Of a stretch of 64,000 nucleotides of DNA, positions 1,491-63,600 are shown one piece after another. Origin of the DNA: Bacilli bacterium (GTDB taxonomy: Bacteria > Bacillota_I > Bacilli_A > RF39 > UBA660). The stretch covers positions 51,819 through 115,818 of the forward strand of contig JAFSEY010000007.1 of NCBI GenBank assembly GCA_017435485.1, written 5' to 3'. Every line of letters begins with the position of its first letter. Within the stretch, counting starts at the first letter, position 1. The position numbers and the translations under genes were made by a program. The notes below the pieces were generated by a model that saw only the letters and a program-made list of their open reading frames with translations, ran no database searches and had not been told where the DNA came from.

Positions 1491-1496
1491 TTTTAA

Positions 1497-2745: not shown

Positions 2746-2749
2746 TATA

Positions 2750-2826: not shown

Positions 2827-2862
2827 ATCTAAAATGAATTATACTACAAATTCATTTTATAA

Positions 2863-3423: not shown

Positions 3424-3431
3424 TATAAAAC

Positions 3432-3623: not shown

Positions 3624-3631
3624 ATTATTCC

Positions 3632-3796: not shown

Positions 3797-3843
3797 ATTT
3801 CTAACCTCCTTTAAAAGTCCATATGTATTATACCAAATAATAT

Positions 3844-5796: not shown

Positions 5797-5860
5797 TTTT
5801 CTTCACCCTTAATAGTATTCAACTAAAAATTTAAATCATACAATATTATAGGTGAAGATT

Positions 5861-6121: not shown

Positions 6122-6143
6122 ATGCTTTAATAGCATTTTTTTA
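6121..6143. terminator. Bidirectional terminator between convergent genes
   Basis: AATGCT-TTAAT-AGCATT hairpin followed by TTTTTTT, with A-rich sequence on the other side. Confidence 0.55.
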
Positions 6144-6788: not shown

Positions 6789-6796
6789 ATTATCAC

Positions 6797-7766: not shown

Positions 7767-9965
7767 TTAGACTTTTAAAGGATTATTGTCTATCTCTAAA
7801 TATACTTTCTTATTGGTAATAAATATTTGTTCTAAATTTTTTAAAGCTTTTTCTAATTGATCATCTTTTTGATATTTTATGATTATTTGAAAACGATAAG
7901 TATTATTTATTCTAAAAACATTAGCTGTTGTTGGTCCTAGAATTATTGTACTTTTTTGTAATTTTTTTTCTAAGAAACTTTTAACTTTAGTTGCTTCTTT
8001 GCTAGCTAATTCATATTCGGGCGAAATTATTTTGATACTTGTCAAAAAATAGTAAGGCGGATATTTTAATTTTTTTCGAATAATCATTTCATTTTGATAA
8101 AAAGATTCATAATCATGATTTTTGACATTTTCAAAAATGTAATTATCAGGATTAAATGTTTGAATAATAACATTTCCTTTTAAACCACTTCTTCCTGCTC
8201 TTCCTGCTACTTGATCTAGTAATTCAAAGGTTCTTTCACTACTTCTAAAATCAGGAATATTTAGGGAAGCATCAGCATTTATTACTCCAACTAAAGTTAC
8301 TAAAGGAAAGTCTAATCCTTTACTAATCATTTGCGTACCAATTAAAATGTCATATTCATGATTTTTAAAAGCATTAATAATTTTTTCATGACTACCTTTA
8401 TTGGCCGTTGTATCTGTATCCATTCTTAATATTTTTGCATTAGGAAATTCTTTTTTAAAAATATCTTCTAATTTTTCCGTTCCTGTGCCTAAAAAACTGA
8501 GCGCTGATTCATGACATTCTGGACATTTATCATCTTTTATAACTGTATAGCCACAATAATGGCATCTTAAACTATCAGAACTTTTATGATAAGTTAGTGA
8601 TATATCACAATATTTACATTTGTAAGTATAACCACAATTATGACAAGTTATGAATGATGAGTATCCCCTTCTATTTAGCAAAATAATGGCTTGTTCATTA
8701 GCATTTAAACATTTATTAATATTATTTTTTAATAACTCACTTATAACAGTGTTACGTTTTTTCATTTCTTCTGCCATATCAACGATTGTTACTTCTGGCA
8801 AAAGAGATTTTCCAATTCTTTTTTTCATGGTATGTAGTGAATAAATACCCGCGTTGGCTTTAGCCATCGATTCTAAAGAAGGAGTTGCTGAACCAAGGAC
8901 TAAAGGGATATTATGATATTTAGCTCTAAATTTAGCTATATCAATCGCATTATATCTTGGCGTAGTATCTTGTTTAAAATTATCAGAATGTTCTTCATCA
9001 ATAATAATAATTCCTAAATTTTTTAAAGGTATAAAGACATTACTTCTTGTTCCTATCATTATTTTAACTTCATTGCGATAAGCTTTTAAATATTCATCAT
9101 ATCTTTCGGCATCAGATAAACTACTATGATAAATTCCAACGATATCGCCAAATCTTTCGTAAAAACGTTTGATTAATTGCGTTGACAATGTTATTTCGGG
9201 AACCAATACTAAAGCTGTTTGATTATTTTTTAAAATAGTTTCAATTAAATTAAAATATACTTCGGTTTTACCAGAAGCGGTTACTCCATATATTAAATGG
9301 GTTTGATACTTATCTTTATCTTTTAAAATATTATTTATGACTAATGATTGTTCTTCCGTTAATGCTACTACACTTTTCATCTTCTCTTTAGGCATTATCC
9401 GGTATTTAGGAATATATTCATAAGTTACCAATTCTTTTTCTGCTAAAGCTTTAACAACATTAACTGGATAATCACGATAAAATATTTGTTCATTAGATTT
9501 TAGTTTTTCTAATAATTCAATTTGTTTCTTCGCTTTTTTATTATTATTTATATATTCTTCGATAATATTTTCCTCTTTATTTAAAATTAATAATTTTTCA
9601 TATTTAGCCATACTCTTTTTATTACTACTAACTTTAAGGCTAGCTGGCACCATTGTCTTAAATGCAGTCGAAAGTGAACAAAGAGTTAAATTTTTTAATT
9701 TTTCCGCTATTTTAAACATTTCATTATCAAAAACAATATCTTCGTTTAATATTTCAATAATCTCTTTTATTTCAAACTGTTCATCATAAGAATCTTTCAA
9801 TTTTAAAACTAAACCATTAATTGATTTATTATTAAAAGGCACCTTGACTTTCATTCCTACTTTAATTTTATCCAATAAAAAAGAAGGTATTTTATAAGTA
9901 AATACTTTATCCAGAGATTTAACTTCATATTCTATCAAAACCTCAGCATAGATATTTTTACCCAT
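7767..9965 (-). CDS. priA: Primosomal protein N' (replication restart helicase PriA)
   Basis: Walker A GVTASGKTEVY, DEEH box and the Cys-rich zinc-binding insert (CHNCGY...CKYC...CHYCGY...CPEC). Confidence 0.85.
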   Translation of the reverse strand: MGKNIYAEVLIEYEVKSLDKVFTYKIPSFLLDKIKVGMKVKVPFNNKSINGLVLKLKDSYDEQFEIKEIIEILNEDIVFDNEMFKIAEKLKNLTLCSLSTAFKTMVPASLKVSSNKKSMAKYEKLLILNKEENIIEEYINNNKKAKKQIELLEKLKSNEQIFYRDYPVNVVKALAEKELVTYEYIPKYRIMPKEKMKSVVALTEEQSLVINNILKDKDKYQTHLIYGVTASGKTEVYFNLIETILKNNQTALVLVPEITLSTQLIKRFYERFGDIVGIYHSSLSDAERYDEYLKAYRNEVKIMIGTRSNVFIPLKNLGIIIIDEEHSDNFKQDTTPRYNAIDIAKFRAKYHNIPLVLGSATPSLESMAKANAGIYSLHTMKKRIGKSLLPEVTIVDMAEEMKKRNTVISELLKNNINKCLNANEQAIILLNRRGYSSFITCHNCGYTYKCKYCDISLTYHKSSDSLRCHYCGYTVIKDDKCPECHESALSFLGTGTEKLEDIFKKEFPNAKILRMDTDTTANKGSHEKIINAFKNHEYDILIGTQMISKGLDFPLVTLVGVINADASLNIPDFRSSERTFELLDQVAGRAGRSGLKGNVIIQTFNPDNYIFENVKNHDYESFYQNEMIIRKKLKYPPYYFLTSIKIISPEYELASKEATKVKSFLEKKLQKSTIILGPTTANVFRINNTYRFQIIIKYQKDDQLEKALKNLEQIFITNKKVYLEIDNNPLKV

Positions 9966-9979
9966 AAAACACCTCCCGA

Positions 9980-36268: not shown

Positions 36269-37369
36269 CTATACTTTATTATTTGATTTATTTCTGCTTA
36301 TATTTAGAATTATGCCAATAGAAGCCATTGATACTAATAAACTACTTCCTCCATAAGATAAAAATGGTAATGTTACACCGGTAACGGGAATTACACTAAT
36401 TACAACCATCAAATTTAGCAAAGCTTGGATAATTAATCCAAAAGATAAACCAAACGCTAAGTATTTTCCAAAAAGATTATCACATTTTAAAGCGATATTT
36501 ATACAACGATAAAATATGAATAAAAAGAAACTTGTAACTATTAAAACTCCTAAGAAACCAAATTCTTCACTAATAATGGAAAAGATAAAATCAGTTTGCG
36601 GTTCAGGCAGATAAAAACTTTTTTGGCGTGATTGTAAAAAGCCTTGACCTAGTAATCCACCTGGCCCTATAGCGTACAAAGATTGAATAATTTGATAACC
36701 ACTACCTAATGGGTCACTCCAAGGATTTATAAAAGATAAAATTCTGGCGACTCGGTAAGGAGCCGCAATAATAAGCCCAACAATACCTAATAAACCTGCA
36801 CAACCAACTTTGACAAAGAAAGACATTTTAACTCCAGAGACGAAAATAACACAAACTAAAGTTAAAACAATAACCATTGCTGTTCCAAAATCCGGTTCTA
36901 GCATAATGAGTAAAAAAAAGATGGCTATTACTCCTATAAGCGGAAATACTCCTTTAATTATTTCTCTTAAACTTTTTTGGTTGTTAGATAAATATTTAGC
37001 TACATAAATAATTAAACCTATTTTAGCAAATTCACTAGGTTGGATACCGAAAGATCCGATTCCGAACCAGCTACGTGATCCATTTCTTATTTTTCCGATT
37101 CCCGGAATTAAAACTAAAGCCAACAAGAGAAAACAACCTAGTAATATTAAATTAGCTTTTTTCTTATAAAATTTGTAATCAAATTTAGATAAAAATAGCA
37201 TTAAAAATATCCCAACAATAAAAAATAGACCTTGCGCTTTAACATATTTAAAAGCATCATTAAATTTATACGCTGCCCAAATAGAACTAGCTGAGTAAAT
37301 CATAAGCAAACCAAAAACGGCTAGCAATATAACCGCAACAAATAAATGCCAATCACATTTTTTATTCAT
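36269..37369 (-). CDS. ftsW: SEDS-family peptidoglycan glycosyltransferase FtsW/SpoVE
   Basis: 10-TM SEDS protein (GSRSWF, PSEFAK, LPEPQTDFIFS). Confidence 0.8.
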   Translation of the reverse strand: MNKKCDWHLFVAVILLAVFGLLMIYSASSIWAAYKFNDAFKYVKAQGLFFIVGIFLMLFLSKFDYKFYKKKANLILLGCFLLLALVLIPGIGKIRNGSRSWFGIGSFGIQPSEFAKIGLIIYVAKYLSNNQKSLREIIKGVFPLIGVIAIFFLLIMLEPDFGTAMVIVLTLVCVIFVSGVKMSFFVKVGCAGLLGIVGLIIAAPYRVARILSFINPWSDPLGSGYQIIQSLYAIGPGGLLGQGFLQSRQKSFYLPEPQTDFIFSIISEEFGFLGVLIVTSFFLFIFYRCINIALKCDNLFGKYLAFGLSFGLIIQALLNLMVVISVIPVTGVTLPFLSYGGSSLLVSMASIGIILNISRNKSNNKV

Positions 37370-37430
37370 ATAAATATCCCCTATTTAATTTTATTTTTTT
37401 AAATAAAAAAAAGACTATAAAAGTCTTTAA

Positions 37431-38423
37431 TTATAACCAAACACCATATGTAATAGCTAACATACTTAAAAGTAATCCTACTGTCCAAAATAATTTTATA
37501 ATATCTGTTTCCGCCCAACCTAACTCTTCAAAGTGATGATGCAAAGGAGCTTTTTTTAATATTTTTTTATTAAATTTTTTTATTGCAAGTATTTGAAACA
37601 TACTACTTAAAGTTTCAATAACAAATACTCCACCAATTAAAACTAATGAAAATTCATGTCTAGTTAATATGGCAATTGTAGCAAGTGCAGCCCCTAATGA
37701 TAATGATCCTAAATCCCCCATAAATACTTTGGCAGGATGAGAATTAAAGACTAAGAATCCTAATAATGATCCTACTAATATGAATGAAAATATAGCAACT
37801 TCTTGATATCCTTCCATCCAACCAGTATTCCAAGCAATAATCCCAAAAGCTAAAAAAGCAATAGCAGAAAGCCCTGCAGCTAGACCATCTAAACCATCAG
37901 TTATATTTACTGCATTACTACTTCCAACCAAAACTAATAAAATAAATAAACCAAAGGTCCATCCTAGAGGGATTTCTATATTTAAGAAAGTAAACTCTAA
38001 AGTTGAAGATCCTCCATTTCGCATAAAGATATAGAAAAATATTAAAGCAATAACCATTTGGATCAAAAATTTAGTTGAAATAGCAAGTCCTTTATTATTT
38101 TTATATTTAACTTTAAGCCAATCATCAGCAAAACCTAATAATGCATATGCTAAAAAAACAAAAACTAAAATAATTAAATTATGACTTATTTCAATACTTC
38201 CTCTAATATACAAGAAAATTAAAGATGCTATTACTGAAAAAATAAAGATAATTCCACCCATTGTTGGAGTTCCATTTTTCTTCAAATGTCTTTCATTTAT
38301 TGTTTTACTGACACTTTGACCTATATGTAATTTTCTTAAAATGGGAATTACGATTAACCCTAAAAGAATTGAACTAGCAAATCCCAGCATCATGGCCATG
38401 ACAGCTTTAGCTAATACCAACAT
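37431..38423 (-). CDS. mraY: Phospho-N-acetylmuramoyl-pentapeptide transferase
   Basis: Full-length MraY (NTPTMGG, DDWLKV, NAVNITDGLDGLA, HHHFE). Confidence 0.85.
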   Translation of the reverse strand: MLVLAKAVMAMMLGFASSILLGLIVIPILRKLHIGQSVSKTINERHLKKNGTPTMGGIIFIFSVIASLIFLYIRGSIEISHNLIILVFVFLAYALLGFADDWLKVKYKNNKGLAISTKFLIQMVIALIFFYIFMRNGGSSTLEFTFLNIEIPLGWTFGLFILLVLVGSSNAVNITDGLDGLAAGLSAIAFLAFGIIAWNTGWMEGYQEVAIFSFILVGSLLGFLVFNSHPAKVFMGDLGSLSLGAALATIAILTRHEFSLVLIGGVFVIETLSSMFQILAIKKFNKKILKKAPLHHHFEELGWAETDIIKLFWTVGLLLSMLAITYGVWL

Positions 38424-38507
38424 AATAGCACCTCTTTCTTATTACATATTATACTACAAAGATAGTTTTTTAACATTTTATTGAAATTTATTTGACATTT
38501 ATTTACG

Positions 38508-40415
38508 TTAATTACCAAGCATCAACATAATAGTAGAGCCTTCCGGAGTAAAATAATTAGCTTGAGGACTTTGGTAAATTACACGACTTCCTTTTCCCGT
38601 ATACTCTATTTTAAAACCTTTTAAAAGTTTTTCAGCTTCTTCTAAATCTTTACCAACTACATTAGGTACAACAACATATTTAGTATCTAACCAATTATAT
38701 TCTTTAGGCATTCCTTTACTACTTGGCTTTATATCTAATATTTCAATCGCGGATTGCATGATATTTTTTGCTATTGGAGCTGAAACTGTTCCACCATATT
38801 GGCTTACTCCTTTAGGATTGTCAACAGCAACATAGACCACAATTTCTGGATCATCTGCAGGCAGGAAACCAATAAACGACAAAATATAGTTTCCAATCAT
38901 ATATTTTCCATTGCTAACTTTTTGAGCTGTTCCAGTTTTTCCTCCAACTCGGTAGTTTTCAATATAAGCATTTCTTCCAGTTCCATTTGCTACAACGCTT
39001 TCTAAGGCATATCTAACTAAATTACTAGTTTCTTTACTGATTACTTGCCTTATCTTTGCATTGCCAAATTCTTTAATTAAAGTATTGGTTTCCGATTCAT
39101 TTAACGCTTTAACAATTTTGGGTTGATATAAAATTCCGCCATTAATTACTGCTGATACAGCTGTGACTTGTTGAATCGGAGTTACACTGATTCCTTGCCC
39201 AAAAGATGTTGTAGCGTGTTCAACTGGTCCCATTTTTTCCAACTTAAACATTATTCCACTACTTTCCCCATTTAAATCAATATTAGTTTTTTTGCCAAAT
39301 CCAAAATTAGCTATATATTCCATTAGTTTTTCTTTTCCGACTTTTTGGCCCATAACAACAAATCCGGGGTTACAAGAGTTTTCCGTAACTTGTAAAAAAG
39401 TTTGAGTTCCATGCCCACCATGTTTCCAGCAGTGTAACGTTGCCCCTTCTACACCGATTGCTCCAGTATCAGTATACATATCAGAAAAAATATCAATCAC
39501 TTTTTCTTCAATAGCGGAAGCAAGAGTAATTATTTTAAAGGTACTTCCTGGCTCATAAGTCATCCATATCGGTAAATTACGATTAATGACTTCAGTTGTA
39601 TAATCTTGATAATTATTACTATCAAAATTAGGACGACTACTCATTGCTAAAACTTCGCCAGTATCTGGATCCATGACAATAGCTAAGGCGTGTTCAGCGT
39701 TATACTTACTAATAACGTTATCCAATTCATTTTCGACAGCCAATTGCAAATCTAAATCAATAGTAGTTTGGATTGTTATTCCACTCGTAGGTGCTTCATA
39801 TACTTCACTTAATTCTAAGCGGTTACCCTTTCCATCAGAAAAATATTTAATGGCTCCATCTTCACCAGTTAAATAATCATCATAATACAATTCTAAACCA
39901 GACAAACCTTGATTATCGATTCCAACATAACCTAATACATGAGATAAAGCCGAAGCATAAGGATAATATCGTTTACTTTCTTTTACTAAATAAACGCCAT
40001 CGTAATTTAAATTATTAATTTTTTCAGCCGTTTCATAAGATAGTCTTCTTCCTTCTGGATGCACTCTTTCTATACTAGTTTTTTTACTCACATGACTAAA
40101 CATTTCTTCATAAGTTACTCCTAAAATCTCAGCTAAATCCTTACTTACTGCTTTTTTATCAGCAATTTGATTAGGTATTAAAACTAATGAAGTCGTCGTA
40201 ATATTAGTAGCTAGTTCTTTCCCGTTTCGATCGACAATAAGTCCCCTATCAGCCGCAATAGGTAGTTTTCTACTCCACAATGAATCCGCTAAGGTAGATA
40301 ATTTATCATACTGAAATACTTGAATTACAAATACTCTTACGATAACAATTAAGATTAAACAAATAACTACTAAAAAGACATATCTTATTCTTGTATGTAT
40401 GTCATTAAAAAACAT
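38508..40415 (-). CDS. spoVD: Class B PBP with a C-terminal PASTA domain (SpoVD/PBP2B-like)
   Basis: TM anchor, dimerisation domain, STFK / SCN / KTGTA motifs, and a C-terminal PASTA domain (VVPNVVGKDLEEAEKLL...). Confidence 0.75.
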   Translation of the reverse strand: MFFNDIHTRIRYVFLVVICLILIVIVRVFVIQVFQYDKLSTLADSLWSRKLPIAADRGLIVDRNGKELATNITTTSLVLIPNQIADKKAVSKDLAEILGVTYEEMFSHVSKKTSIERVHPEGRRLSYETAEKINNLNYDGVYLVKESKRYYPYASALSHVLGYVGIDNQGLSGLELYYDDYLTGEDGAIKYFSDGKGNRLELSEVYEAPTSGITIQTTIDLDLQLAVENELDNVISKYNAEHALAIVMDPDTGEVLAMSSRPNFDSNNYQDYTTEVINRNLPIWMTYEPGSTFKIITLASAIEEKVIDIFSDMYTDTGAIGVEGATLHCWKHGGHGTQTFLQVTENSCNPGFVVMGQKVGKEKLMEYIANFGFGKKTNIDLNGESSGIMFKLEKMGPVEHATTSFGQGISVTPIQQVTAVSAVINGGILYQPKIVKALNESETNTLIKEFGNAKIRQVISKETSNLVRYALESVVANGTGRNAYIENYRVGGKTGTAQKVSNGKYMIGNYILSFIGFLPADDPEIVVYVAVDNPKGVSQYGGTVSAPIAKNIMQSAIEILDIKPSSKGMPKEYNWLDTKYVVVPNVVGKDLEEAEKLLKGFKIEYTGKGSRVIYQSPQANYFTPEGSTIMLMLGN

Positions 40416-40603
40416 ATAATCACCTAAGTAATTATATGTTAAAAGTTTATTTTTTATCTATTTACCTTAAAACTCTTCTTCTGTTTTTTTATAGACTTCA
40501 TCTTTTTATTTTTTGATAAACAAAACATTATACAATCTATCCGATTTAGATGTTTATGTACAGTGCCATTAAAATAACAACTATTTCCTGCATTAAACTA
40601 ATC

Positions 40604-41587
40604 TTAATTTAAATATTTTGTTCCAAATTTAAGTTTTGATAATTCACTAAAATCTAAAGAATAGTTACTCACATTTTTAAATAATAGTCCATTATAAAAA
40701 TTATCAGATTCATATTTTACAGAACCAGCAACCGTTGAATCATACCAGTAATAACCATCATCTAACTTAACAAAATTCCATGCATGAGGTCCACTAGTAT
40801 CTCCTAATGCTATTAACGATTCAATCCCCATCCTTTGAAATAAAAGCTGACTAGCAGCTGCAAATCCTGCACAAACACTATCATCTTTCAATAATGCACT
40901 CCAAGCAGTTCCACTTTTATTAGTGGCTAGTAAACTATAGTGAGTAGTTTTACCCAACCATGTATATACACTCTTTACTTTATCATAATCGGTTAAACCT
41001 TCAAAATCTTTTGCTAAGGAATCAATTTTTCTTTGCAACCTTTTTCCAACAAAGAATAATTGTAATTTATTAGTAGTTACATAGTTGTGTTTAATTAAAA
41101 GAACGTCATCACCATCTGTCCAAGAATATCTTGAACTACGATACCAAAAAAAATCAGGATGTTCCATAAGTATAACATCAATTACCTTTATAAAATCATC
41201 AGTACAACTATTAAAGGTTGGGTACCCATAATTTCTACAATCTAACTGTCTTTCAACAATCAAATTTTTTATATCATTAAATGTATCTAAGTAAATCTTT
41301 TTTGCTTGTTCATTTAACAATGATTCATAATATCTACCATCACTATAATATAAATCTGTTGCGTAATGAATAGAATTTTTATCAATATTTTCATTAATTT
41401 TTACAGGTCTAAAATATAAAATATACATATATATAATTAATAGAATTATAATAATACTTACCAAAAAAAATTTAATAATAACTTTTTTTAAATTATTATA
41501 TATATTATCCTCTTGTTCACACACATATATAGTATTTAAAACCTCATTATCTTTATCATTCATACCACGATAACCTACTTCTAACAA
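40604..41587 (-). CDS. Membrane-anchored transglutaminase-like cysteine protease superfamily protein
   Basis: TM (FFLVSIIIILLIIYMYILYF), then a TGc core with the Cys (SVCAGFAAASQLLF), His (GPHAWNFV) and Asp (YWYDST) residues. Confidence 0.5.
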   Translation of the reverse strand: MLEVGYRGMNDKDNEVLNTIYVCEQEDNIYNNLKKVIIKFFLVSIIIILLIIYMYILYFRPVKINENIDKNSIHYATDLYYSDGRYYESLLNEQAKKIYLDTFNDIKNLIVERQLDCRNYGYPTFNSCTDDFIKVIDVILMEHPDFFWYRSSRYSWTDGDDVLLIKHNYVTTNKLQLFFVGKRLQRKIDSLAKDFEGLTDYDKVKSVYTWLGKTTHYSLLATNKSGTAWSALLKDDSVCAGFAAASQLLFQRMGIESLIALGDTSGPHAWNFVKLDDGYYWYDSTVAGSVKYESDNFYNGLLFKNVSNYSLDFSELSKLKFGTKYLN

Positions 41588-41741
41588 GAGTATACAATAA
41601 TATATTTTTATTTACAATAAAAAGGAAAAATCTAGATTAATATTAAAAGTAAAAGTTATCATTAGAAAAAAAATTAACTATTTTACCATACACTTATCGA
41701 AATATATTTAAAAATATTTAATAGATAGATTCAGTCAAATA

Positions 41742-41822
41742 TTATATTCTTATTATGACAATTAAAATCAAAACTACTAAAAAGATATAAATTATTATCG
41801 TATATACGTCATAAAAAAACAT
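41742..41822 (-). pseudogene. Truncated duplicate of the 5' end of the spoVD/PBP gene, with its leader
   Basis: Reverse strand encodes MFFYDVYTIIIYIFLVVLILIVIIRI*, matching the PBP N-terminus MFFNDIHTRIRYVFLVVICLILIVIVRV. The flanking ~95 bp (41753-41846) is ~80% identical to 40343-40440, including the SD region. Confidence 0.55.
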
Positions 41823-41854
41823 ATAATCACTAAATAATTATATGTTTTTTTGCC

Positions 41855-43468
41855 CTATTTTCTAATTTCTTCTTTTTCACATATACTAGCAAAATCATTT
41901 AAAACTAATCTAAAGGTATTGATTATATCTGTACTGAACTTTTTATTTTCTAAAGCAATTATATTAGCAGCAATAGCTGAATAATTAGTTTCTTTTTCAT
42001 CTACTATATAATTAGCATATATAATTGCTAATGATACAATAGAAACATATAATGGAATATCTTTTCCACTTATTCTTTTTGGATAACCAGTACCATCATA
42101 ATTTTCATGATGAGATAAGCAAATATTGTAAGCATAATCATTTAAAATCTGATCTTTATTATAAAATAACCTTTTTATTAATAAAGCACCATTAGAAGAA
42201 TAATCACTTAATCTTTTTTCTTCATCTATAGAAATATTTTCATTATTGAGAACTTTATTAGGAACTATTAATTTACCAATATCATAATATTTAGAAGCAA
42301 TACAAAGTTTATTTATTAATGGTAATGTTAATCCACAATTAGGATTAGTTTCTAAATATTTCAAAGCAAACACTTCGGTAAGTTTACTCACCAAATTAAT
42401 TTTCTCTTCATTATCCTTTAAATAAACATTTTCTAATTTTTCTAAAATACTATTAACTTCTTTATCCTTATTAATAATTAGACTAGTTAAAGAATTACTA
42501 TTCATATATAATTTAATAAAATTATTTATTCTAAGTCTTATAATTTCTAAATTGAATGGTTTTTCTAACATATCAGCTATATTATAATTATAAACTCTTT
42601 GTCTCGTTTCTTTATCTTCAGCTGCGCTTATAATAATGACCGGTAACTTATTTAATAAATTTTTATCCTTTAAATATTCTAATACAGCAAAACCATCTAA
42701 TACAGGCATCGCAATATCTAAAAATATTCCCACATAATTTAAAATATTTTCGCTAGAATTATAGTTACTTTCTAATAAATCAATTGCTTCCTTTCCGTTA
42801 CTAGCAGTAACAATATTAAAATCTTTTTCAAAAGCTTTTTTTAAAATATTTCTAGTAATTGTATCATCATCAACTATAAGTAACGAATTTTTGGTTTTGT
42901 TTGTCTCAGCAATAATATTCATTTCTAATTTTTTATTTAAACTTGGATAATTTCTAGTTAATTCTTCTAATAATGATTTTATATAATTAAATCCAGGATT
43001 TTCTTCTTTAGCAATATCAATTGTATTATATATTTTTAAAATACTTTCTGAAAAATCTTTAACCATTTTTTGAATTTCTTCATCATTTACTTCTTTGTTT
43101 TTACTAAACGCATTTACTTGTGAAGTCATTATTATAATTAATTGATTATTATCATAGTTAACTTTTTTTGCAATCATAATATAATTATCGTATAAATAAC
43201 TTTCTTTTTTTTGAAAAGAAAAAGTTATTTCGTTCTCAAAATTACCAGATATAATTTTAATATAATTTTCTATATCCGATGAATTTATATAAGTTTTTTC
43301 TGATTCTACAAAATCTAAAAATGATCTGGTTTCTTTAAATTTAACATAGTTGTTTTCAAAATTATATGTATTAACTATATCTTTTCTTAAATCAACAACA
43401 TAAACATTAGAAAATGTTTTTAATAATGCTTCTCCAACAACATTTAGATATTCACTTCCAGGCATCAT
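41855..43468 (-). CDS. Response regulator: unknown N-terminal domain + REC + degenerate HD-GYP domain
   Basis: REC with the Asp acceptor (IFLDIAMPVLDG), S/T (IIISA) and Lys (LEKPF). C-terminal HHENYDGTGYP (GYP motif), but the HD dyad reads YD (ASKYYDIGK) and the upstream metal-binding His is absent. Confidence 0.7.
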   Translation of the reverse strand: MMPGSEYLNVVGEALLKTFSNVYVVDLRKDIVNTYNFENNYVKFKETRSFLDFVESEKTYINSSDIENYIKIISGNFENEITFSFQKKESYLYDNYIMIAKKVNYDNNQLIIIMTSQVNAFSKNKEVNDEEIQKMVKDFSESILKIYNTIDIAKEENPGFNYIKSLLEELTRNYPSLNKKLEMNIIAETNKTKNSLLIVDDDTITRNILKKAFEKDFNIVTASNGKEAIDLLESNYNSSENILNYVGIFLDIAMPVLDGFAVLEYLKDKNLLNKLPVIIISAAEDKETRQRVYNYNIADMLEKPFNLEIIRLRINNFIKLYMNSNSLTSLIINKDKEVNSILEKLENVYLKDNEEKINLVSKLTEVFALKYLETNPNCGLTLPLINKLCIASKYYDIGKLIVPNKVLNNENISIDEEKRLSDYSSNGALLIKRLFYNKDQILNDYAYNICLSHHENYDGTGYPKRISGKDIPLYVSIVSLAIIYANYIVDEKETNYSAIAANIIALENKKFSTDIINTFRLVLNDFASICEKEEIRK

Positions 43469-43480
43469 GACACCACCTTT

Positions 43481-43840
43481 TTACAAATTTTTATAATTTC
43501 CAATTAAAGTTTTAACTTCAACTACAATATTTTCTAAGCTTTTAATATTTTCATTCACAAAAGCTACATTTCCAGCCTTACTAGCTAATTCGTGTTCATA
43601 AGCTGCATCAGCTAATTTAGTAAGTCCCAAAGTTCTAGCATTGCTTTTTAAAGCATGAACTAAAATTGCATAGTTTGACAAATCATTTATACTATTTTTT
43701 AATGTGTTAAATTGTTCATCTAAACCTTCATAAAACTCTAAAAGAATTTCATGATACATCTGCAAATCTCCAGTATAATTAATTACTGTATTTAAATCTA
43801 TTCCGGCAGTAACTAAGTAATTTTTTTGATTCTCACTCAT
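43481..43840 (-). CDS. Histidine phosphotransfer (Hpt) protein
   Basis: 119 aa, four-helix-bundle pattern with HALKSNARTLGL (HxxKGxxxxxG). Confidence 0.65.
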   Translation of the reverse strand: MSENQKNYLVTAGIDLNTVINYTGDLQMYHEILLEFYEGLDEQFNTLKNSINDLSNYAILVHALKSNARTLGLTKLADAAYEHELASKAGNVAFVNENIKSLENIVVEVKTLIGNYKNL

Positions 43841-43879
43841 TTTAAACTTCCCTTCTATTATTTATTTTAACATAATAAA

Positions 43880-45724
43880 TTAATTTTTAAAATGTTTCTC
43901 TAATAATTTATTTAAATCACTAATATTAATAGGTTTTGATAAATATTCATCAAACCCTTCTTTAAGATACATTTCCCTCATCCCCGTAATAGCATTTGCA
44001 GTTAAAGCAACTATAGGAGGAATATTATAGGATTTTAAACTTTTTAAAATATGTAATACCTCTATACCATCCATGCCTGGCATCATATGATCCAAGAAAA
44101 TCAGATCAAACACTTCTCCAGATTTTATAAGATCAACACAAGCCTTACCATTATTCAAAGTAGTAATTTGAAATTTATAATTATCCAATATTCTCTTAGC
44201 GACTTTTAAATTAAGTTCATTATCATCAACTAATAAAATTTTATATTTAGAACAATCAAAATATTTATCTACAAACTCAGTCGTTTTATATTCAGTATTA
44301 AATAAATCTCCCATAGGACTTCTATCTATAATTTTTTGACTTAAATCGATATAAAAATCTGTTCCTGCTCCATATTTACTTTCAAACCAAACTTTTCCTT
44401 TAAGTAAATTTACTAGTTTTTTTGTTATTACTAAACCTAATCCAGTCCCTTCTATCTCATTTTGCATAGCAGATTCTAAACGACTAAATTTTTCAAATAA
44501 TTTATCATAATCCTCTGCTTTTATACCTAATCCAGTATCTGAAACACGAAAATGTAAATTAACCCAATCCTTTTCCACTTGACCAGTTATAGCTAATTCA
44601 ATTCGACCTACTTCTGTATATTTTACAGCATTACTTAGTATATTTAAAAGAATTTGAAATAACTTTGTTTTATCACCATAGAGCCTGCTAGGCAAAGAAT
44701 TATCAATATTAGTAATAAATTTCACTTTGCCACTTGATAGTCTTGCATCAATAATACTATGTAATTCTAAAATAATATTAGCTAAGCTATACTCCCTTTC
44801 ATCTAAAGTTTCTTCTCCATTTTCAATTTTAGAAATATCTAAAATATTATTAATTATTTCTAATAAATTTCCACCAGCTACATATATATGTTCAATATCT
44901 TTTCTAGCTGCTTCTTCATCAAATTCAGGTTCATTTATTAAAGATTCACTAAACCCTATAATTGCATTCATAGGAGTTTTAATTTCATGAGACATGTTTG
45001 ATAAAAAATCAGATTTTGCTCGATTAGATTCTTCTGCTTTTTTCTTAGCCTTTTCTAATTCATTAATTAAATATAAATCAGGATTTTCAACTGAAAAATA
45101 AATAAGATACAGTTTAAACGCCAAACTACTAGTCAAAATATATACTGTTGGAAAAACAAATGAAAGGGGAACTGATATTAGTGTTTCAATAATACTAATA
45201 ATAATTGGTAGCCTTCTATTAAAAGCAACGACAGTTTTATATTTAGAAACAAAATAAATAGCAACTAAAACTAATATAAGCCCTAAAATATAGACAAAAT
45301 ATAAAGCCTTACCAGACAAATAACCGGTACCATCTACAACTATATATTCTAATGGTAAGAAAAAGAAAATAATACTAACTACACCAAACAATATCCAAAA
45401 AGGACGATATTTATTTAATTTTGTTTCAGCATCTTTATTAGTATTAATAAAAGATAAAATATAACGGGCCATTATAGTCAACCAAGCTAATATCAATAAA
45501 CAATGTACTCGACATAAAATTTCATTGACAACGACCATTTTTAGATGATTTTTTATAGTAAATACCGTAACTATTTCGGAAACTAAAACAAATAATAAGC
45601 AAACTAATAAAGCACTAAAATATTTATTTTCATAATTAGTAATTTTTGTTTTATATTTATAAATCAATAATAATAGAATTGTAAAAATTAAACTTCCCAA
45701 GGAAAGTAAAATTGTTTGAATCAT
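43880..45724 (-). CDS. Hybrid sensor histidine kinase (multi-TM sensor + HisKA + HATPase_c + REC)
   Basis: ~6-7 N-terminal TM helices, H-box [18 protein letters not shown] boxes, and a C-terminal receiver (LLVDDNELN...[11 protein letters not shown]...SKP). Confidence 0.75.
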
Positions 45725-45737
45725 ATAAAATCACCTC

Positions 45738-47603
45738 CTACTTTTTAAAATAATAGTTAATTAAACTATTTAATTTTTTAGCATCAATTGGTTTAGATAA
45801 CCATCCATCAAAACCTTCTTTTAAATACATAGCTTTTAACTCAGTTACAACGTTAGCAGTTACAGCAATAATTGGAGGAATATCAAAACCTTTCATTTTT
45901 TTTATTATTCTAATAGTTTCGATTCCATTTAGATTAGGCATCATATGATCCAATAAAATTAGATCAAATTTTTCTTTTTTCTTTATTTTTTCAATACAAG
46001 CTGCACCATTATCAACTAAAGTAACATCAAAATTATAAGCACTTAACAAACGATGAGCCACTTTTAAATTTAGTTTATTATCATCAACAACTAATATTTT
46101 CTTTCCTGTCCCATCAACGCGAACATCATTTATTTTTAAATTTTCTTTTATCTTTAAAATATCTCCTATTTTTCGATAATCAACAATATGATTAGATAAT
46201 GTCACTCTAAAGATTGAACCTACTCCGTATTCACTTTTAAAATCTATTGTTCCTTTTAACATATCTACCAAACTTTTTGTAATATTAAGTCCTAGCCCTG
46301 TTCCAGAATCTAACTCACTATCTTCAGTAATTTTAGCAAACTTTGTAAATATTTTTTCAAAATCATCTTGTTTTATTCCAACACCCGTATCACTAATTAT
46401 AAATTCTAAGTTAGCAATATTATTATTTTGATGACAATTAATAGCTAATTTTATCTCTCCAGCTTTAGTATATTTAACACTATTATTTAATAAATTTAAT
46501 AATATCTTATAAATTTTCTGTTTATCGCCAACCATTTTAGTAGGAATATTTTGATCAACCTCTACAACAAAATTCACTTTATTCTTATTGATTCTTGCTT
46601 CAATATAACTAATTAATTCAAAAACAATATCTCCAATATAATATTCTTTTAAATCAATTTTTTCTTTACCAGATTCAATGCGAGAAACATCTAAAATGTT
46701 ACTAATAGTAGCAATTAAATTATTACCCGCTAAATAAATATTTCTGGCGTCAGCTTGAACAACTTCCCTAGATAAAAACTTTTCATTTAATAAAGATTCG
46801 CTAAATCCCATAATAGCATTCATCGGAGTTCTTATTTCATGAGACATTTTAGCTAAAAATTCTGTTTTTTCTTTGTCAGCTTCTTCTGCTTCTTTTTTAG
46901 CAATTTCCAATTCGCTAACCAATTTAGAATCTTGACTAGCTAAAGCAAAATACAATATTACAACGCCAAAACCAAAAGAAAAAGTTAATTCATTAATTTC
47001 TGTATATAAAATTTGAAATACTAACATAAAGAAATATACGTTCATAAATAAATAAATAGATAATTTCTTTAAAAAAGATGCTTTATTTTTCTTCCTAAAA
47101 AGCAAGTAAATCATATACCCTCCAACAAAAGCAAAAATAGCATACAAACTATAAACCCCAGGGCCTCCAATTACATATAATTCATTATTAATTCCTGAAG
47201 TATAAGTTATTTCAAAAAAGCAAGAAAATATAAAACAAACCAAACCAAACAACACAGAGAAAATGAAAAATGGTTCCTTAAATAGAAGTTTTGTATCCCT
47301 ATAATTATCACTATTTCCTGATATCCATATATATATAAGTAAAGAAATAAACCAAGTAACTGCTCCTAAAATGTATAAACGACATAAAATTTCATTTAAT
47401 AAAGGAATTTTCTCTCTAATACTCATTGTAAAGACACAATATAATTCCAATATAAATAAACCAATTGTTAAAACAAGCAAAAAACGATATAATGAATTTT
47501 CTACATCATTATATTTTTTCTTTGTTAAATAAACAATAGCTATTATTAGTGTAAAAACTAATCCTGATATTGTAAGTCCTATACTAGCAAACACATTAAC
47601 CAC
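45738..47603 (-). CDS. Hybrid sensor histidine kinase, paralog of the adjacent one
   Basis: Same architecture: 7 TM, SHEIRTPMNAIMGFSE, HATPase, receiver (VLVVDDNKLN...LLDHMMPNLNG...SKP). Confidence 0.75.
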   Translation of the reverse strand: MVNVFASIGLTISGLVFTLIIAIVYLTKKKYNDVENSLYRFLLVLTIGLFILELYCVFTMSIREKIPLLNEILCRLYILGAVTWFISLLIYIWISGNSDNYRDTKLLFKEPFFIFSVLFGLVCFIFSCFFEITYTSGINNELYVIGGPGVYSLYAIFAFVGGYMIYLLFRKKNKASFLKKLSIYLFMNVYFFMLVFQILYTEINELTFSFGFGVVILYFALASQDSKLVSELEIAKKEAEEADKEKTEFLAKMSHEIRTPMNAIMGFSESLLNEKFLSREVVQADARNIYLAGNNLIATISNILDVSRIESGKEKIDLKEYYIGDIVFELISYIEARINKNKVNFVVEVDQNIPTKMVGDKQKIYKILLNLLNNSVKYTKAGEIKLAINCHQNNNIANLEFIISDTGVGIKQDDFEKIFTKFAKITEDSELDSGTGLGLNITKSLVDMLKGTIDFKSEYGVGSIFRVTLSNHIVDYRKIGDILKIKENLKINDVRVDGTGKKILVVDDNKLNLKVAHRLLSAYNFDVTLVDNGAACIEKIKKKEKFDLILLDHMMPNLNGIETIRIIKKMKGFDIPPIIAVTANVVTELKAMYLKEGFDGWLSKPIDAKKLNSLINYYFKK

Positions 47604-47665
47604 ATCTTTTCTATCTTATACTTTTATTTTATCTTATCTGTATTTTTATTACAAGAAAAAAGCAC

Positions 47666-49777
47666 TTATGTGCTTAAGGTAATTGTCAAATTATCTATAT
47701 CTTTAACATTAGTTCCTGATGGAATACTTGATGATGTAACAAAACCATATCCTTCCAAAGTATAATCAATATTTAATAAGTTACACAAATTAATTACATC
47801 ACTAGCAGAATATCCAATTATATCCGGTAATAAATAATTATCATCGTTAGTTAAAATAAATACTTTAGCTCCTTTATTGCGAGTCATATTGAATAAAGGA
47901 TACTGGTTTATTACTTTATCTCCACTTCCTAAGACAATTGGTTTTAGACTTTTTGTTTCCAATACACTAACCACATCAGGAGTGTTTTTGTTTATATAAT
48001 TATCTAAAGTAATTATTTTTGAAGAATCAACATCACTTTTTGTATTCGTAATATTAGAATATTTAGCTATTTCTTCAACCGCCTTAGTTACAACATCTGC
48101 TAAAACATTATTTTCTGTATTTACTTGTTTTACAGATACATAGAAAATATATTTAGGATCTTCATATGGAAAATATCCAGCAAAACTTTTAATGTAATCA
48201 TAACTTCCCGTTAAGTATCCACCTTTAGGTCCTGCTATTTGGGCTGTACCAGTTTTTCCAGCCATTGTTACATTGTCTGGCTGCCATGCTTTCGATAAAC
48301 CATTATAAACTACATCATACATTAAAGAATTCATTTTAGTAACAGTTGATTCACTAACCTTTTGTCCTAAATTAGTCACTTCAGTTTCAAAAGTAACTTC
48401 TCCTTCGCTATTAACTATCTTATCAACGATATATGGTTTTATCATTTGGCCATTATTAGTTAAAACAGTTAATGCTTGCAAATTTTGAATTGGAGTAGTT
48501 GTAAGTCCTTGGCCAAATGAAGCATTAGCAAGTTCTGTTTTATAATTAAAATCGATTTTACCAGCTACTTCACCATTTAATTCAAATTCAGTAATTTTAC
48601 CAAAACCCATTTTTTCATAAAATGCTCTTAATCTTTTATTACCTAATTCTAAACCCAGTTTTGTCGCAGCAACGTTGGACGAATAAGCAAAACCAACGTC
48701 ATAAGTTATTTCGCCCCATCCTTTATTGTTAAAGTCACGAATTGTATGATCAGCAACTTCAATTTTACCTGATTCAAATGTTTCTAGCCCATTATATATT
48801 CCTTCTTCCATGGCAGCCATAAAAGAATATATTTTCATCGTACTACCAGGTTCATATTGATATGAAACTAACGGATTTAAATAAGAAGATAAAGTATTTA
48901 AGTCATTTAAATTAAAGCTTGGATTTGATCCAGATGCCACAATTGCCCCCGTTTTGGCATCCATAACTGTAAATGTCATCCAATCATAATCGTAATCTTT
49001 ATCTAAATCTTTAATAGCATTTTCAACTATTATTTGGATATTATTATCAATTGTTAAAAAAATATCAGACCCACTTATTGGTTCTTCTGTATTAGACGGC
49101 GTATTAGGCATTTGATACCCATAGGCATCTTTTTGATATTCAGTGTAACCATCTATACCTTGTAATTCTTTATCAAAAGTTTTTTCAATACCCATTTCCC
49201 CAGTAATTTTACCTTCTTCATCATTTTTTGCATAACCAATAATATAAGAAGCAAAATTCCCCATTTTATAATATCTAGTTGTACTTACAATAAAATCAAT
49301 TCCGGGAAGATTTAAACTATCTATTTCTTTTTTCTTAAGTTCTGTTAAATCTCTTCCTTTTGAACCAAATTCAACTTGATAAACATCTTTTTTATTTAAG
49401 TATCCTAATATTTCTTCTTCTGATAATTCTAATACTTCCGATAACTTTTTGGCAGTCAATGCTTTATCGACTACATGCTTTGGATCAGACTCATCAGTAG
49501 TACGTGATTCTTCTAAATAGGCAATTAAAGTATAGGAATTAACTGTTTGAGCTAAAACATTGCCATTTAAATCGTAAATTGAACCACGAGAGGCATATAA
49601 AGTTTTCTTAACAGTATTTCTTCCATTAGCAAAGCTAGTTAAATTAATACCATCGACGTTACTGCTTAATGCTACGAAAGATAATTTGAAAATTATAGCA
49701 ACAAACAAAAAAACAACGATTATCATGACAAATTTATATAATCTTACCGTTGTTTTCTTGTTTTTCATCTTAGTCAC
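47666..49777 (-). CDS. pbpB: Class B PBP with two C-terminal PASTA domains (PBP2B division transpeptidase)
   Basis: TM, STMK / SSN / KTGTAQ motifs, then two PASTA repeats. Immediately downstream of ftsL. Confidence 0.8.
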   Translation of the reverse strand: MTKMKNKKTTVRLYKFVMIIVVFLFVAIIFKLSFVALSSNVDGINLTSFANGRNTVKKTLYASRGSIYDLNGNVLAQTVNSYTLIAYLEESRTTDESDPKHVVDKALTAKKLSEVLELSEEEILGYLNKKDVYQVEFGSKGRDLTELKKKEIDSLNLPGIDFIVSTTRYYKMGNFASYIIGYAKNDEEGKITGEMGIEKTFDKELQGIDGYTEYQKDAYGYQMPNTPSNTEEPISGSDIFLTIDNNIQIIVENAIKDLDKDYDYDWMTFTVMDAKTGAIVASGSNPSFNLNDLNTLSSYLNPLVSYQYEPGSTMKIYSFMAAMEEGIYNGLETFESGKIEVADHTIRDFNNKGWGEITYDVGFAYSSNVAATKLGLELGNKRLRAFYEKMGFGKITEFELNGEVAGKIDFNYKTELANASFGQGLTTTPIQNLQALTVLTNNGQMIKPYIVDKIVNSEGEVTFETEVTNLGQKVSESTVTKMNSLMYDVVYNGLSKAWQPDNVTMAGKTGTAQIAGPKGGYLTGSYDYIKSFAGYFPYEDPKYIFYVSVKQVNTENNVLADVVTKAVEEIAKYSNITNTKSDVDSSKIITLDNYINKNTPDVVSVLETKSLKPIVLGSGDKVINQYPLFNMTRNKGAKVFILTNDDNYLLPDIIGYSASDVINLCNLLNIDYTLEGYGFVTSSSIPSGTNVKDIDNLTITLST

Positions 49778-49778
49778 C

Positions 49779-50075
49779 TTATTCGTTTATACTTTTAATA
49801 TTATTATTGTTATAAGAAAGACCTAATTCATCTGCTAAAGCTTTAATATTTTCTAATGATGCAAGTTCATTTATTTGCATATTTAAGCTTTCATTAGTCT
49901 TTGCTTGTTTCTCTATTTTATTTTGTAATTTAGAAACCTCAATATTACTTTGTGATAATAGAGCTTGAGTTAAAACATTGCAAACTGGGATTGCTAAAAT
50001 AAGAAAAGCTAGTAATAAATACATTAGTTTTTCACCTTTTAAAAATTTTAGTTTTTTTGTTTTAGCTCTAGTCAT
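49779..50075 (-). CDS. ftsL: Cell division protein FtsL
   Basis: 98 aa, bitopic, one TM plus a coiled-coil periplasmic part, located between rsmH and pbpB. Confidence 0.6.
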   Translation of the reverse strand: MTRAKTKKLKFLKGEKLMYLLLAFLILAIPVCNVLTQALLSQSNIEVSKLQNKIEKQAKTNESLNMQINELASLENIKALADELGLSYNNNNIKSINE

Positions 50076-50078
50076 AAT

Positions 50079-50999
50079 TTATACCCTTTCAATTACTCTT
50101 AATTTAGCACTATTACTTCTTCTATTCTCTTCTAATTCTTTATTAGATGGTAATATTGGTTTTTTATTTATTAATTTAATTAAAGGCTTATACTCATCAG
50201 GAATTACTGGTAAACCCTTAACTATTTCATCTGTTTCACTATATTGTTTGAAAATATGCTTTACAATTCTATCTTCCAAAGAGTGGAATGTTATAACACA
50301 TATTCTGCCGCCAGGTTTTAACATTTTAATTGCTTCTGGCAAAGCTTTTTCAATTACTTTTAATTCTTCATTAACTTCAATTCTAATTGCTTGAAAAATT
50401 TGTCTTTCCGGGTGTTTTTCATTAAAGTATTTAGCACCCACTGCCCTTTTGATCACTTCAACAAGTTCTGTAGTTGTTTCGATTTTTTTATCTTGACGAT
50501 AAAAAACTATTTTTCTAGCTATTACTTTAGATAATTTTTCTTCTCCATATTTAAAGAAAATATCAGTCAACTCGTCTTGCGAATAATTATTAACTACTTC
50601 GTAAGCACTTTTTTCTTTCGTATTATCCATACGCATGTCAAGTTTTCCTTCACGCATGAAAGAAAAACCTCGTTCACTATTATCAATTTGAGGTGAAGAA
50701 ATCCCTAAATCAAATAGAAAACCATCGACAAGTCCAATGTTATCATTTTCTAAATTTTCTTTTAAGTTAGAAAAATTATCATGAAATATTTTAAAGTTAG
50801 AAGATATTTCACTTAAACGGCGCTGAGCAAAATCTATGGCTTCTTGGTCAGCATCAAAGGCGAATAGAAAACCCCTTTTCAAACGCTTTAATATTTCTTG
50901 GCTATGTCCTGCATAACCGACGGTCGCATCTACGTATACCCCATCTTCTTTGATGGCTAAATTTTCAATTACTTCATTTAATAAAACACTATAATGCAT
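50079..50999 (-). CDS. rsmH: 16S rRNA (cytosine1402-N4)-methyltransferase RsmH (MraW)
   Basis: MHYSVLLNEV...YVDATVGYAGHS...FDLGISSPQID. Confidence 0.9.
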   Translation of the reverse strand: MHYSVLLNEVIENLAIKEDGVYVDATVGYAGHSQEILKRLKRGFLFAFDADQEAIDFAQRRLSEISSNFKIFHDNFSNLKENLENDNIGLVDGFLFDLGISSPQIDNSERGFSFMREGKLDMRMDNTKEKSAYEVVNNYSQDELTDIFFKYGEEKLSKVIARKIVFYRQDKKIETTTELVEVIKRAVGAKYFNEKHPERQIFQAIRIEVNEELKVIEKALPEAIKMLKPGGRICVITFHSLEDRIVKHIFKQYSETDEIVKGLPVIPDEYKPLIKLINKKPILPSNKELEENRRSNSAKLRVIERV

Positions 51000-51433
51000 T
51001 ATAAATCAAAATCCGTAAATAAGTTTTCAGCAATATCTTCTAATTTAGAAGAATTGTCCTCTAAAAATTCATCCCAAGAAGACTCGCTCCATATTTCAAG
51101 TCGATCGTTAGCGCCGATTATAACACACTCTTTGGTTAAACCGGCGTAACTTTGTAAGGGAGATACGACATTGATTCGACCTTGTTTATCGAATTCACAT
51201 TCAGCAGCACCAGAAAAGAAGCTTCTTATAAATGTACGGGCATCTTTTTTTGTAAATGGTAAGCTTTTAAGTTTGCTTACAATATTATTCCATTCAGCTT
51301 CAGAATAAACATAAAGACATTTTTCTAAGCCACGAGTAATAATAAATTTTTCACCAAGTTCACTACGAAACTTGTTAGGAATTACTAATCTTCCTTTTTC
51401 ATCAATATTATGATGAAATTCACCCATGAACAT
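50999..51433 (-). CDS. mraZ: Transcriptional regulator MraZ
   Basis: Start set at MFMGEFHHNIDEKGRLVIPNKFR; two MraZ half-domains. The track ORF (start 51466) adds 11 spurious residues. Confidence 0.85.
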   Translation of the reverse strand: MFMGEFHHNIDEKGRLVIPNKFRSELGEKFIITRGLEKCLYVYSEAEWNNIVSKLKSLPFTKKDARTFIRSFFSGAAECEFDKQGRINVVSPLQSYAGLTKECVIIGANDRLEIWSESSWDEFLEDNSSKLEDIAENLFTDFDL

Positions 51434-51603
51434 TTTAATCCCCCACTTTCTGCCACAGCATGCCACTGTCTACCATTATATTAATATAATCTAATTCAAA
51501 AGTAAATTATTTTTCTAAAAAAATTACCCCTTTACGTAAAATTTACAGACATTTTTTCTTGTTAAAAAATTATAATTACGTATAATATAAATGAGGTAAA
51601 AAT

Positions 51604-54664: not shown

Positions 54665-54905
54665 CTAAATAAAAAAAACATCCATCCCAAAGGACGAATG
54701 TTATCGTGGTACCACCTTATTTTTTTCTTAAAGTCTTAATGCGACTAACATTATATCTTACTAGCTATTCAGATATACAACTCCCAAGCTACCTTCAATA
54801 ATTATCATCATTAGTTTACACCAACCACTAACTCTCTATAGTAAATTAATTATTTACTCCTCTTGTTCTTCGTTTTTACACGATTATTTTATCAAAGTTT
54901 AATTT
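54665..54905 (-). promoter_or_regulatory. T-box riboswitch leader of valS
   Basis: Minus strand carries the T-box consensus AAGGTGGTACCACGATAA, then terminator CATTCGTCC-TTTG-GGATGGATG + UUUUUUUU. Stem-I segment AGAGAGTTAGTGGTTGGTG lies upstream. Confidence 0.7.
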
Positions 54906-63352: not shown

Positions 63353-63600
63353 TCTAAATAAAAAAACACTCATCCCCAAAGGACGAATGTTATCGTGGTA
63401 CCACCTTATTTTTTTCTCTTTTTTATAACGCAGAATCTCTGCGAATTATCTTACTATTTTCAGATAATTAACTCCAAAGTGATATTAAATAGCTATTCTT
63501 TATTAGTTTGCACCAACCACTAACTCTCTTAAAAGCATTCGCTATTTAACGTGTCTTTTTCAATGTATTTCCTGTATTATACTATTAAATGTTTTATTTT
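63353..63600 (-). promoter_or_regulatory. T-box riboswitch leader of ileS
   Basis: T-box AAGGTGGTACCACGATAACATTCGTCCTTTGGGGATGAGTG + U-run. Its 3' ~48 nt are identical to the valS leader. Confidence 0.7.

Follow-up and report, generated by a model that had tools for sequence, protein, structure and literature searches.

We analysed a 64,000-nucleotide stretch of contig JAFSEY010000007.1 (positions 51,819 to 115,818; hereafter the window) from a Bacilli bacterium, in which a short, decayed copy of the start of a penicillin-binding protein (PBP) gene, here called the stub, lies just upstream of a gene for a transglutaminase-like protein (TGc). The organism is uncultured, very AT-rich and one of the gut Bacilli, and related contigs are labelled as Bacilli, Tenericutes or Mollicutes metagenome-assembled genomes from ruminant, rabbit and human samples. 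The minus strand carries, in order, mraZ, mraW, a PBP2X/2B-like class B PBP (47666-49777), two hybrid histidine kinases (HK), an Hpt protein, a response regulator (RR) with receiver and HD-GYP domains, the stub, TGc, a second class B PBP, mraY, ftsW and tmk (Table 1). The second PBP scored 713.2 against the NCBIfam model TIGR02214, 'stage V sporulation protein D', for which the curated equivalog cut-off is 688, and so counts as SpoVD. The gene upstream of the stub had been taken for an HD-GYP regulator in a note made from the sequence alone (the original prediction), and its domains agree. The NCBI accessions of the regulator (MBQ9834106.1) and of TGc (MBQ9834105.1) are consecutive, which means that no protein-coding gene is annotated at the stub.

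Table 1. Features of the regulator-to-spoVD junction and of comparable loci in other species (window positions unless a locus, L plus number, is named)
Feature	Position	Strand	Content or evidence
Response regulator with HD-GYP domain, last gene of the HK-HK-Hpt-RR phosphorelay cluster	41855..43468	-	receiver + HHE...GYP
Hairpin inside stub	41813..41851	-	perfect 15-nt arms AAAAAAACAUAUAAU / AUUAUAUGUUUUUUU, 9-nt spacer; predicted dG -14.6 kcal/mol, z -6.1
Stub, decayed second copy of the 5' end of the PBP gene (spoVD type), from about -31 in the leader to codon ~27	41744..41846	-	alignment, open reading frame translation
TGc leader with promoter-like element TTGTAA (41617)-17-TATACT (41589) with TG	41564..41628	-	conserved with the L081 homologue
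TGc, membrane-anchored transglutaminase-like protein, 319 aa from ATG 41563	40604..41563	-	Pfam, homologue alignment, NCBI
TGc-PBP spacer with promoter-like TAAACA-18-TATAAT preceded by TG (40556-40527)	40441..40603	-	motif scan, relatives
Functional copy: leader hairpin with Shine-Dalgarno sequence and AUG, first ~28 PBP codons	40331..40440	-	alignment, folding
Class B PBP, SpoVD type, intact	38508..40415	-	PBP_dimer, Transpeptidase and PASTA domains; TIGR02214
Slot content confined to this lineage: stub, 115 nt, TGc module and about 146 nt	40458..41873		comparison with relatives
Window slot	41872-40457		stub + TGc, 1416 bp
L045, L102-104 slot	L045 9752-9960		about 200 bp, non-coding
L105 slot	2785-2883		about 100-190 bp, unrelated spacer
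L100 slot	5003-6943		small P-loop protein + Fic protein
L101 slot	5812 onward		PLP-decarboxylase-like gene
L003 stub	insert 2375-3804		35 nt, 97%; hairpin + U-run; flanks 1.4-kb insert with AAA_14/DUF4143 ATPase
L058 stub	752-5992		101 nt, 88%; break ~+66; 5 kb upstream of gene
L061	6665-10001		one stub
L030	1521-8330		two stubs

A repeat search of the window returned an ungapped 70-nt pair (40354-40423 and 41761-41830) with 83% identity. Gapped local alignment extended this pair to the full stub and functional copy, with 89 of 110 columns identical, 14 mismatches and 7 gap positions in three indels (81% identity with gaps, 86% without), and blastn within the window gave 87% identity over 76 nt (E 2.9e-19). 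The local score was 113, compared with a mean of 22 and a maximum of 39 in 1000 composition shuffles and a mean of 19 and a maximum of 41 in 3000 real control windows, which excludes chance similarity in AT-rich DNA. The imperfect repeat of about 95 bp and roughly 80% identity that had been described at this place is thus real, and its identity lies well above the ~60% taken beforehand as the level below which the claim should fall. An assembly artefact was also rejected: two other assemblies, L082 (ENA) and L083 (Logan), which may derive from the same sample, are 100% identical across the region, and a repeat of 81-86% identity would not mislead an assembler.

The stub retains an open reading frame (ORF) of 26 codons (41742-41822, minus strand) that reads MFFYDVYTIIIYIFLVVLILIVIIRI and ends in a stop codon created by, and lying at, the junction. 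The PBP begins MFFNDIHTRIRYVFLVVICLILIV, and 17 of the 26 residues are identical, so the resemblance reported for the remnant peptide holds on re-translation. The weakening of the Shine-Dalgarno (SD) sequence also proved correct, and is due to a one-base deletion (AGGTGA to (T)AGTGA). Substitutions in the stub are AT-biased (GC 0.155 versus 0.209 in the functional copy), and the conserved region at -45 to -32 that precedes the functional copy is absent. Inspection by eye suggested, for the window, L045 and L105, that the duplication might run further upstream into the regulator tail (-70 to -32), but the scores did not exceed those of shuffles (p 0.2-0.9). Given the AT-biased substitutions, the three indels and the damaged SD, the stub is a dead, decaying pseudogene fragment and not a gene.

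The TGc product matches Pfam Transglut_core (PF01841; E 1.3e-9, 38.7 bits against a gathering cut-off of 23) and the solved transglutaminase-like protein PDB 9crn (E 1.5e-7). C239, H268 and D283 are invariant or nearly so across homologues, and an N-terminal hydrophobic segment is present. Domain score and Cys-His-Asp triad place the protein, as judged by homology, in the Transglutaminase-like superfamily, and the earlier picture of two repeat copies bracketing a membrane-anchored TGc gene with an intact triad was borne out. The gene had been drawn at 40604-41587; the gene itself stands, but its start needs correction, because translation likely begins at ATG 41563, as in the NCBI record, and not at TTG 41587, which would add 8 codons. 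The closest TGc homologue (L081, 71% identity) lies in an unrelated context, and its similarity to the window is confined to the gene itself and some 65 nt of leader, with a TG-extended -10-like TATACT (window 41628-40608). Because only leader and gene are shared, we conclude that TGc moved as a promoter-plus-gene module, either relocated or imported. Homologues at 52-61% identity occupy a conserved context in more distant relatives, namely a 212-aa gene, TGc, feoA, feoB, ABC-F and rhodanese; feoAB and the 212-aa neighbour are absent from the window. A scan for the PBP in one genome per species (GTDB) gave 80 loci, and none of these has a TGc homologue within 10 kb of spoVD. The protein database shows no second TGc from this genome, its other matches being homologues at no more than 71% identity. 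The 1.4-kb TGc segment contains no transposase, integrase or recombinase. Terminal inverted repeats or a transposase around TGc were rejected, as the inverted repeats found do not exceed the AT-rich background.

Comparison with relatives showed that the junction between the regulator and spoVD differs from lineage to lineage. Further regulator-to-PBP junctions (L100-L105) came from a search with the regulator protein followed by contig look-ups. The closest relative, L045 (about 92% nucleotide identity), has the same mraW-PBP-HK-HK-Hpt-RR cluster and, where the original prediction had proposed to look for an arrangement lacking the insert, carries the regulator, about 200 bp and the PBP, with neither TGc nor stub. 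Likewise, among NCBI accessions belonging to the L045 genome, a protein search returned no close homologue of TGc. TGc and stub are missing from all four other junction versions (L045/L102-104, L105, L100 and L101). In all pairwise comparisons homology breaks off at the 3' end of the regulator (window ~41872) and is regained about 42 nt before the PBP start (40457), and the last ~15-20 nt of the TGc-PBP spacer before the hairpin are common to relatives. The functional copy is 97-98% identical to the leaders of L045 and L100. The spacers are mutually unrelated: blastn of all spacers against all loci found nothing, and homology of the ~200-bp L045 spacer to either window spacer was rejected because the scores equal those of shuffles. 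A metagenome scan with the regulator protein for a closer outgroup gave only distant or differently arranged loci. Because four related versions lack both TGc and stub and carry unrelated DNA between the same boundaries, we read the two as a lineage-specific insertion. On sequence comparison, the junction is a variable slot lying between two constrained units, with stub and TGc as content peculiar to the window lineage. The footprint of duplicative insertion or recombination proposed for this site therefore stands as far as recombination in this lineage goes, but the event was no clean insertion into an L045-like site; all five junction versions differ.

Two observations on slot content stand apart from this. 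The L045 spacer (9765-9975) holds a 41-codon open stretch ending in SPEIEDYYGITKGNHSWLTSDEMVILLIVITNDI and a stop codon, which could be the tail of a lost gene. The Fic protein in the L100 slot is 67% identical to a Fic protein on the recombinase element that splits spoVD in L045.

The divergence between window and L045 is uneven. Over 36381-51547 of the window, identity is 94-96% in HK1-Hpt-RR, 90-92% in the initial 1.3 kb of the PBP gene, and 84-86% past the site of the L045 element and in mraY; synonymous divergence (dS) ranges from 0.22 to 0.8 by gene and differs between neighbouring genes. This mosaic suggests frequent homologous exchange, with steps at insertion sites. Substitutions separate stub and functional copy at about 14% of sites, with indels in addition; this distance is of the same order as the neutral divergence of one lineage since the L045 split and would fit an event after or around that split.

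The left part of the duplicated segment is a hairpin. In the PBP leader (40402-40445, minus strand), the AUG and part of the SD fall within a 13-18-bp stem, after which comes a run of U6-7, with a predicted dG of -13 to -15 kcal/mol and z of -4.5 to -6. A z below -2 was found at PBP starts in 31% of 77 loci, versus 2% of mraY starts and 5% of ftsW starts. Pairing is kept by two-sided changes in several variants (ATAAT/ATTAT swaps, CATAG/CTATG, and CAA with a TTG start). The conserved stem-loop may be a translational or termination control element. The hairpin of the stub begins a few bases past the TAG stop of the regulator; its arms are intact and longer than in the functional leader, the start codon lies within the stem, and U7 follows. 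This part of the stub has 2 changes in 34 nt versus 19 in the next 76 nt (p=0.02). The stem is AU-only, and a consensus terminator scanner, which needs at least three GC pairs, makes no call; Rfam gave no family match for leader or stub at E up to 1. From its predicted fold, the hairpin with its U-run probably now acts as, or at least resembles, an intrinsic terminator of the phosphorelay operon, a role more likely for it than that of promoter. Locus L051 has a gene-end hairpin of the same style, which had looked like a 'second copy' of the leader but proved to be an ordinary terminator hairpin.

Comparing the PBP 5' end of each locus with its own locus revealed stubs of the same gene start that arose independently in no fewer than three other species (L003, L058 and L030/L061). 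That of L003 breaks after codon 4 (+12), and the 5 kb of cargo beside the L058 stub include DUF6904 and an AAA_21 ATPase. The stubs of L030 and L061 share one junction at about +100 and stand between alleles of a 355-aa membrane protein without a Pfam match, alleles that have diverged to 66-79% identity; the close relatives L033 and L034 have a single allele of this protein, adjoining the PBP. Decay has gone further in the distal L030 stub (about 90% identical to the functional copy) than in the proximal one (94-97%). Cargo at other stubs also includes AbiEi/AbiEii and a DDE transposase fragment. Homology of the window stub to the L030/L061 stubs past the break point was not supported. Each of 946 ORF starts was compared with the locus in which it lies; nearly all non-reciprocal 5' stubs belonged to spoVD, and among 868 other gene starts they were almost absent. 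What else matched were paralogue pairs, one internal repeat, a small number of brief and weak similarities, and a pair of T-box leaders in the window, which account for the only other 5' region shared within it. About four independent stub events at one gene would make this a mildly interesting hot spot.

We think it probable, though well short of certain, that the stub is a duplicate of the spoVD 5' end made by the same recombination that put TGc into the slot, in an event of the insertion-duplication type. The layout fits, with a truncated copy upstream and a complete copy downstream, and related genomes have the same junction with neither insert nor duplicate and with spacers that differ from each other and from the window. 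We infer the route, and the direction of some of the steps, as follows. Incoming DNA would have been anchored by homology to the PBP 5' end. A fragment that had become circular could then have entered by one crossover (Campbell type); alternatively, homology-facilitated illegitimate recombination (HFIR) would have left its illegitimate joint inside the resident gene, at about codon 28. Both routes would yield, in order, the upstream gene, a truncated resident 5' end, the cargo and a complete leader plus gene, leaving the PBP intact with its own leader. The stub would afterwards have gathered its AT-biased substitutions, three indels and damaged SD, while the hairpin stayed comparatively well preserved.

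Insertion-duplication by Campbell-type single-crossover integration is used for mutagenesis in naturally transformable Firmicutes. As in that procedure, the window has an insert between direct repeats of a target fragment, the upstream repeat truncated and the downstream one contiguous with the gene; unlike it, the event was natural and vectorless, its circular intermediate and donor are not observed, and its repeats have diverged to 81-86%. So read, the event is of a known kind: a pseudogene fragment left by insertion-duplication, in the course of ordinary genome evolution. It offers a clean, dated example of an accessory gene entering the division and cell wall (dcw) cluster of uncultured gut Bacilli while the neighbouring essential-type gene was spared, and it reveals the junction upstream of spoVD as a hypervariable slot. 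The stub leaves the known biology of PBPs and of transglutaminase-like proteins unchanged. If the recurrence of stubs marks a real hot spot, it would provide a marker for gene flow and a natural case of insertion-duplication or HFIR.

Several points weigh against insertion-duplication from a donor. Both routes require a donor with TGc directly upstream of spoVD, and none was found in the 80 GTDB loci or the contexts of TGc homologues, a weak point given the limited sampling. The stub lies 9 nt from the regulator stop, where relatives have 100-230 nt or whole genes, so that either a compact, empty recipient junction or a further deletion must be assumed. The spoVD 5' end shows no conservation peak, and there is thus no obvious reason why it should be a preferred homology anchor; its mean pairwise identity (0.58-0.63) is below the gene-wide mean (about 0.68), on which ground we rejected it as an unusually conserved anchor. 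The three L030/L061 stubs share one junction and so represent one event plus amplification, which brings the independent cases down to about four. The conservation of the stub hairpin is no more than suggestive, its p of 0.02 becoming 0.09 when indels are counted as single events.

A bolder reading, which we regard as unlikely, is that the spoVD 5' end in this clade is a recombinase-free landing pad, at which accessory, often defence-type genes are repeatedly stacked by anchor-homology recombination and hairpin-bearing stubs are kept as terminators of the upstream operon. If true, a housekeeping cell-wall gene would here be the base of a system resembling a cassette array.

The insertion-duplication or HFIR event favoured above has a precedent. 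A process in which homology to an anchor displaces older material and leaves orphan fragments behind has been proposed for the effector-immunity arrays of the Vibrio cholerae type VI secretion system and for Rhs loci (PMC5361080), and the orphan modules of Rhs and contact-dependent inhibition (CDI) loci offer a comparison for sequential displacement (PMC3240628). The likeness lies in a single anchor gene beside which modules are stacked and older fragments pushed aside with no dedicated recombinase, and in the stronger decay of the distal L030 stub. The differences are that the anchor here is the 5' end of a housekeeping PBP gene and not a toxin gene, that the cargo is heterogeneous (TGc, ATPases, AbiE, a surface protein), and that the window has a single stub.

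The leading alternative is a purely intragenomic origin, which we consider improbable. Under one version, a tandem duplication over TGc and the first ~83 nt of the PBP gene was followed by deletion of the upstream TGc copy; under the other, a replication template switch at the hairpin, of the kind described as microhomology-mediated break-induced replication (MMBIR) or fork stalling and template switching (FoSTeS), copied TGc from another place in the genome and re-copied -31 to +83. The L061 and L030 stubs do lie between paralogous copies of the same gene, as tandem duplication would give, replication forks could stall at the stable hairpin that marks the left edge of the duplication, and an external donor was not found. 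Against this, the protein database shows only one TGc from this genome, a tandem duplication would call for a further deletion with its end precisely at the base of the hairpin, and the two L061 alleles (X1 and X2) are 79% identical, which fits stacked alleles better than a recent duplication in place.

It is also conceivable, but we think quite improbable, that TGc and stub represent an older state of the junction and that relatives lost both by recombination between the direct repeats or by replacement of the slot. An insert between direct repeats of about 105 bp would be prone to deletion, the junction versions all differ with none demonstrably ancestral, and the mosaic between window and L045 (dS 0.22-0.8) indicates frequent recombination. 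Deletion between the repeats, however, would leave the regulator, 9 nt, the hairpin and the PBP, an arrangement seen in no relative. Four of the five versions, including L100 and L105, which are more distant on the regulator side, have no trace of TGc or stub, and the conserved home of TGc in other relatives adjoins feoAB.

Site-specific capture of cassettes, with the palindromic leader as attachment site for a recombinase encoded elsewhere (Xer-like or integron-like), is more doubtful still. It would account for the L003 duplication, which consists of just the 35-nt hairpin and U-run (97%), for stubs in the window, L003 and L058 that begin at the hairpin close to the stop of the upstream gene, for accessory or defence-like cargo (AbiE, AAA ATPases) and for the enrichment of stubs at this one gene. 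Yet the right-hand break points differ (+12, +66, +83 and about +100) and lie outside the palindrome, the L061 duplication runs upstream into the neighbouring gene, and the hairpin sequence varies between species through compensatory changes. Neither in nor beside the inserts is there a recombinase, and the inserts share no cassette-end motif or terminal inverted repeats. Integrative elements that supply a replacement gene end at tRNA or protein genes resemble the window in leaving the target intact with a copy of its end on both sides; unlike them, the window has no integrase or attachment core, duplicated length and break points vary between species, and 40458-41873 encodes no recombinase, so that it does not classify as a site-specific integrative element. 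Target-site duplication by a transposon likewise flanks an insert with direct repeats of the target, but these are 2-14 bp long compared with 105 bp here (35-140 bp in other species), and a transposase and terminal inverted repeats are lacking, so that the insert does not classify as a transposable element.

A functional stub, whether as a 26-aa membrane micro-protein or as the promoter or leader reading into TGc that had been suggested, is very improbable: although its ORF has stayed open and has an ATG as well as a leftover SD-like AGTGA, and a -10-like TATAAT follows a -35-like TAGAAA at 16 nt, the SD is damaged, the start codon is buried in an 18-bp predicted stem, the L030, L061 and L058 counterparts have lost the start codon or SD or have early stops, promoter-like matches in the region are no commoner than in shuffles, and the conserved stretch that precedes the functional hairpin is missing from the stub, which keeps a terminator-like hairpin, TGc having its own conserved promoter-like leader.

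The spoVD gene is also the target of another kind of rearrangement. In at least five, and probably about ten, of the 80 species, the spoVD-type PBP is split by an inserted element (L045, 11245-19156; L073, L076, L077 and L078; probably also L065, L074, L075, L079, L080 and L102). The splits fall at three recurrent positions, at about residues 294, 350 and 415, with a junction overlap of 3-4 residues, and L078 apparently has two breaks. In the elements that are fully visible, a gene for a large serine recombinase (CcrB/C- or XisF-like) adjoins the downstream junction. The elements resemble the intervening elements of sporulation genes, and a full-text literature search returned no paper naming spoVD as a target of such elements.

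The surrounding gene order varies as well. In the window the four-gene phosphorelay (41855-47603) is inserted into the dcw cluster, where it parts the two class B PBP genes; these two are adjacent in L042, and the same genes occur in another order in L091, L094 and L097. In L020, the space between ftsW and the PBP is occupied by two tandem versions of an ORF6N-like gene, a truncated 91-aa fragment (8429-8704) and a full 295-aa paralogue (9071-9958), so that this neighbourhood has a further decayed fragment. The T-box leaders mentioned above (window 54687-54879 and 63376-63572, minus strand) lie upstream of ORFs of 856 and 1042 aa.

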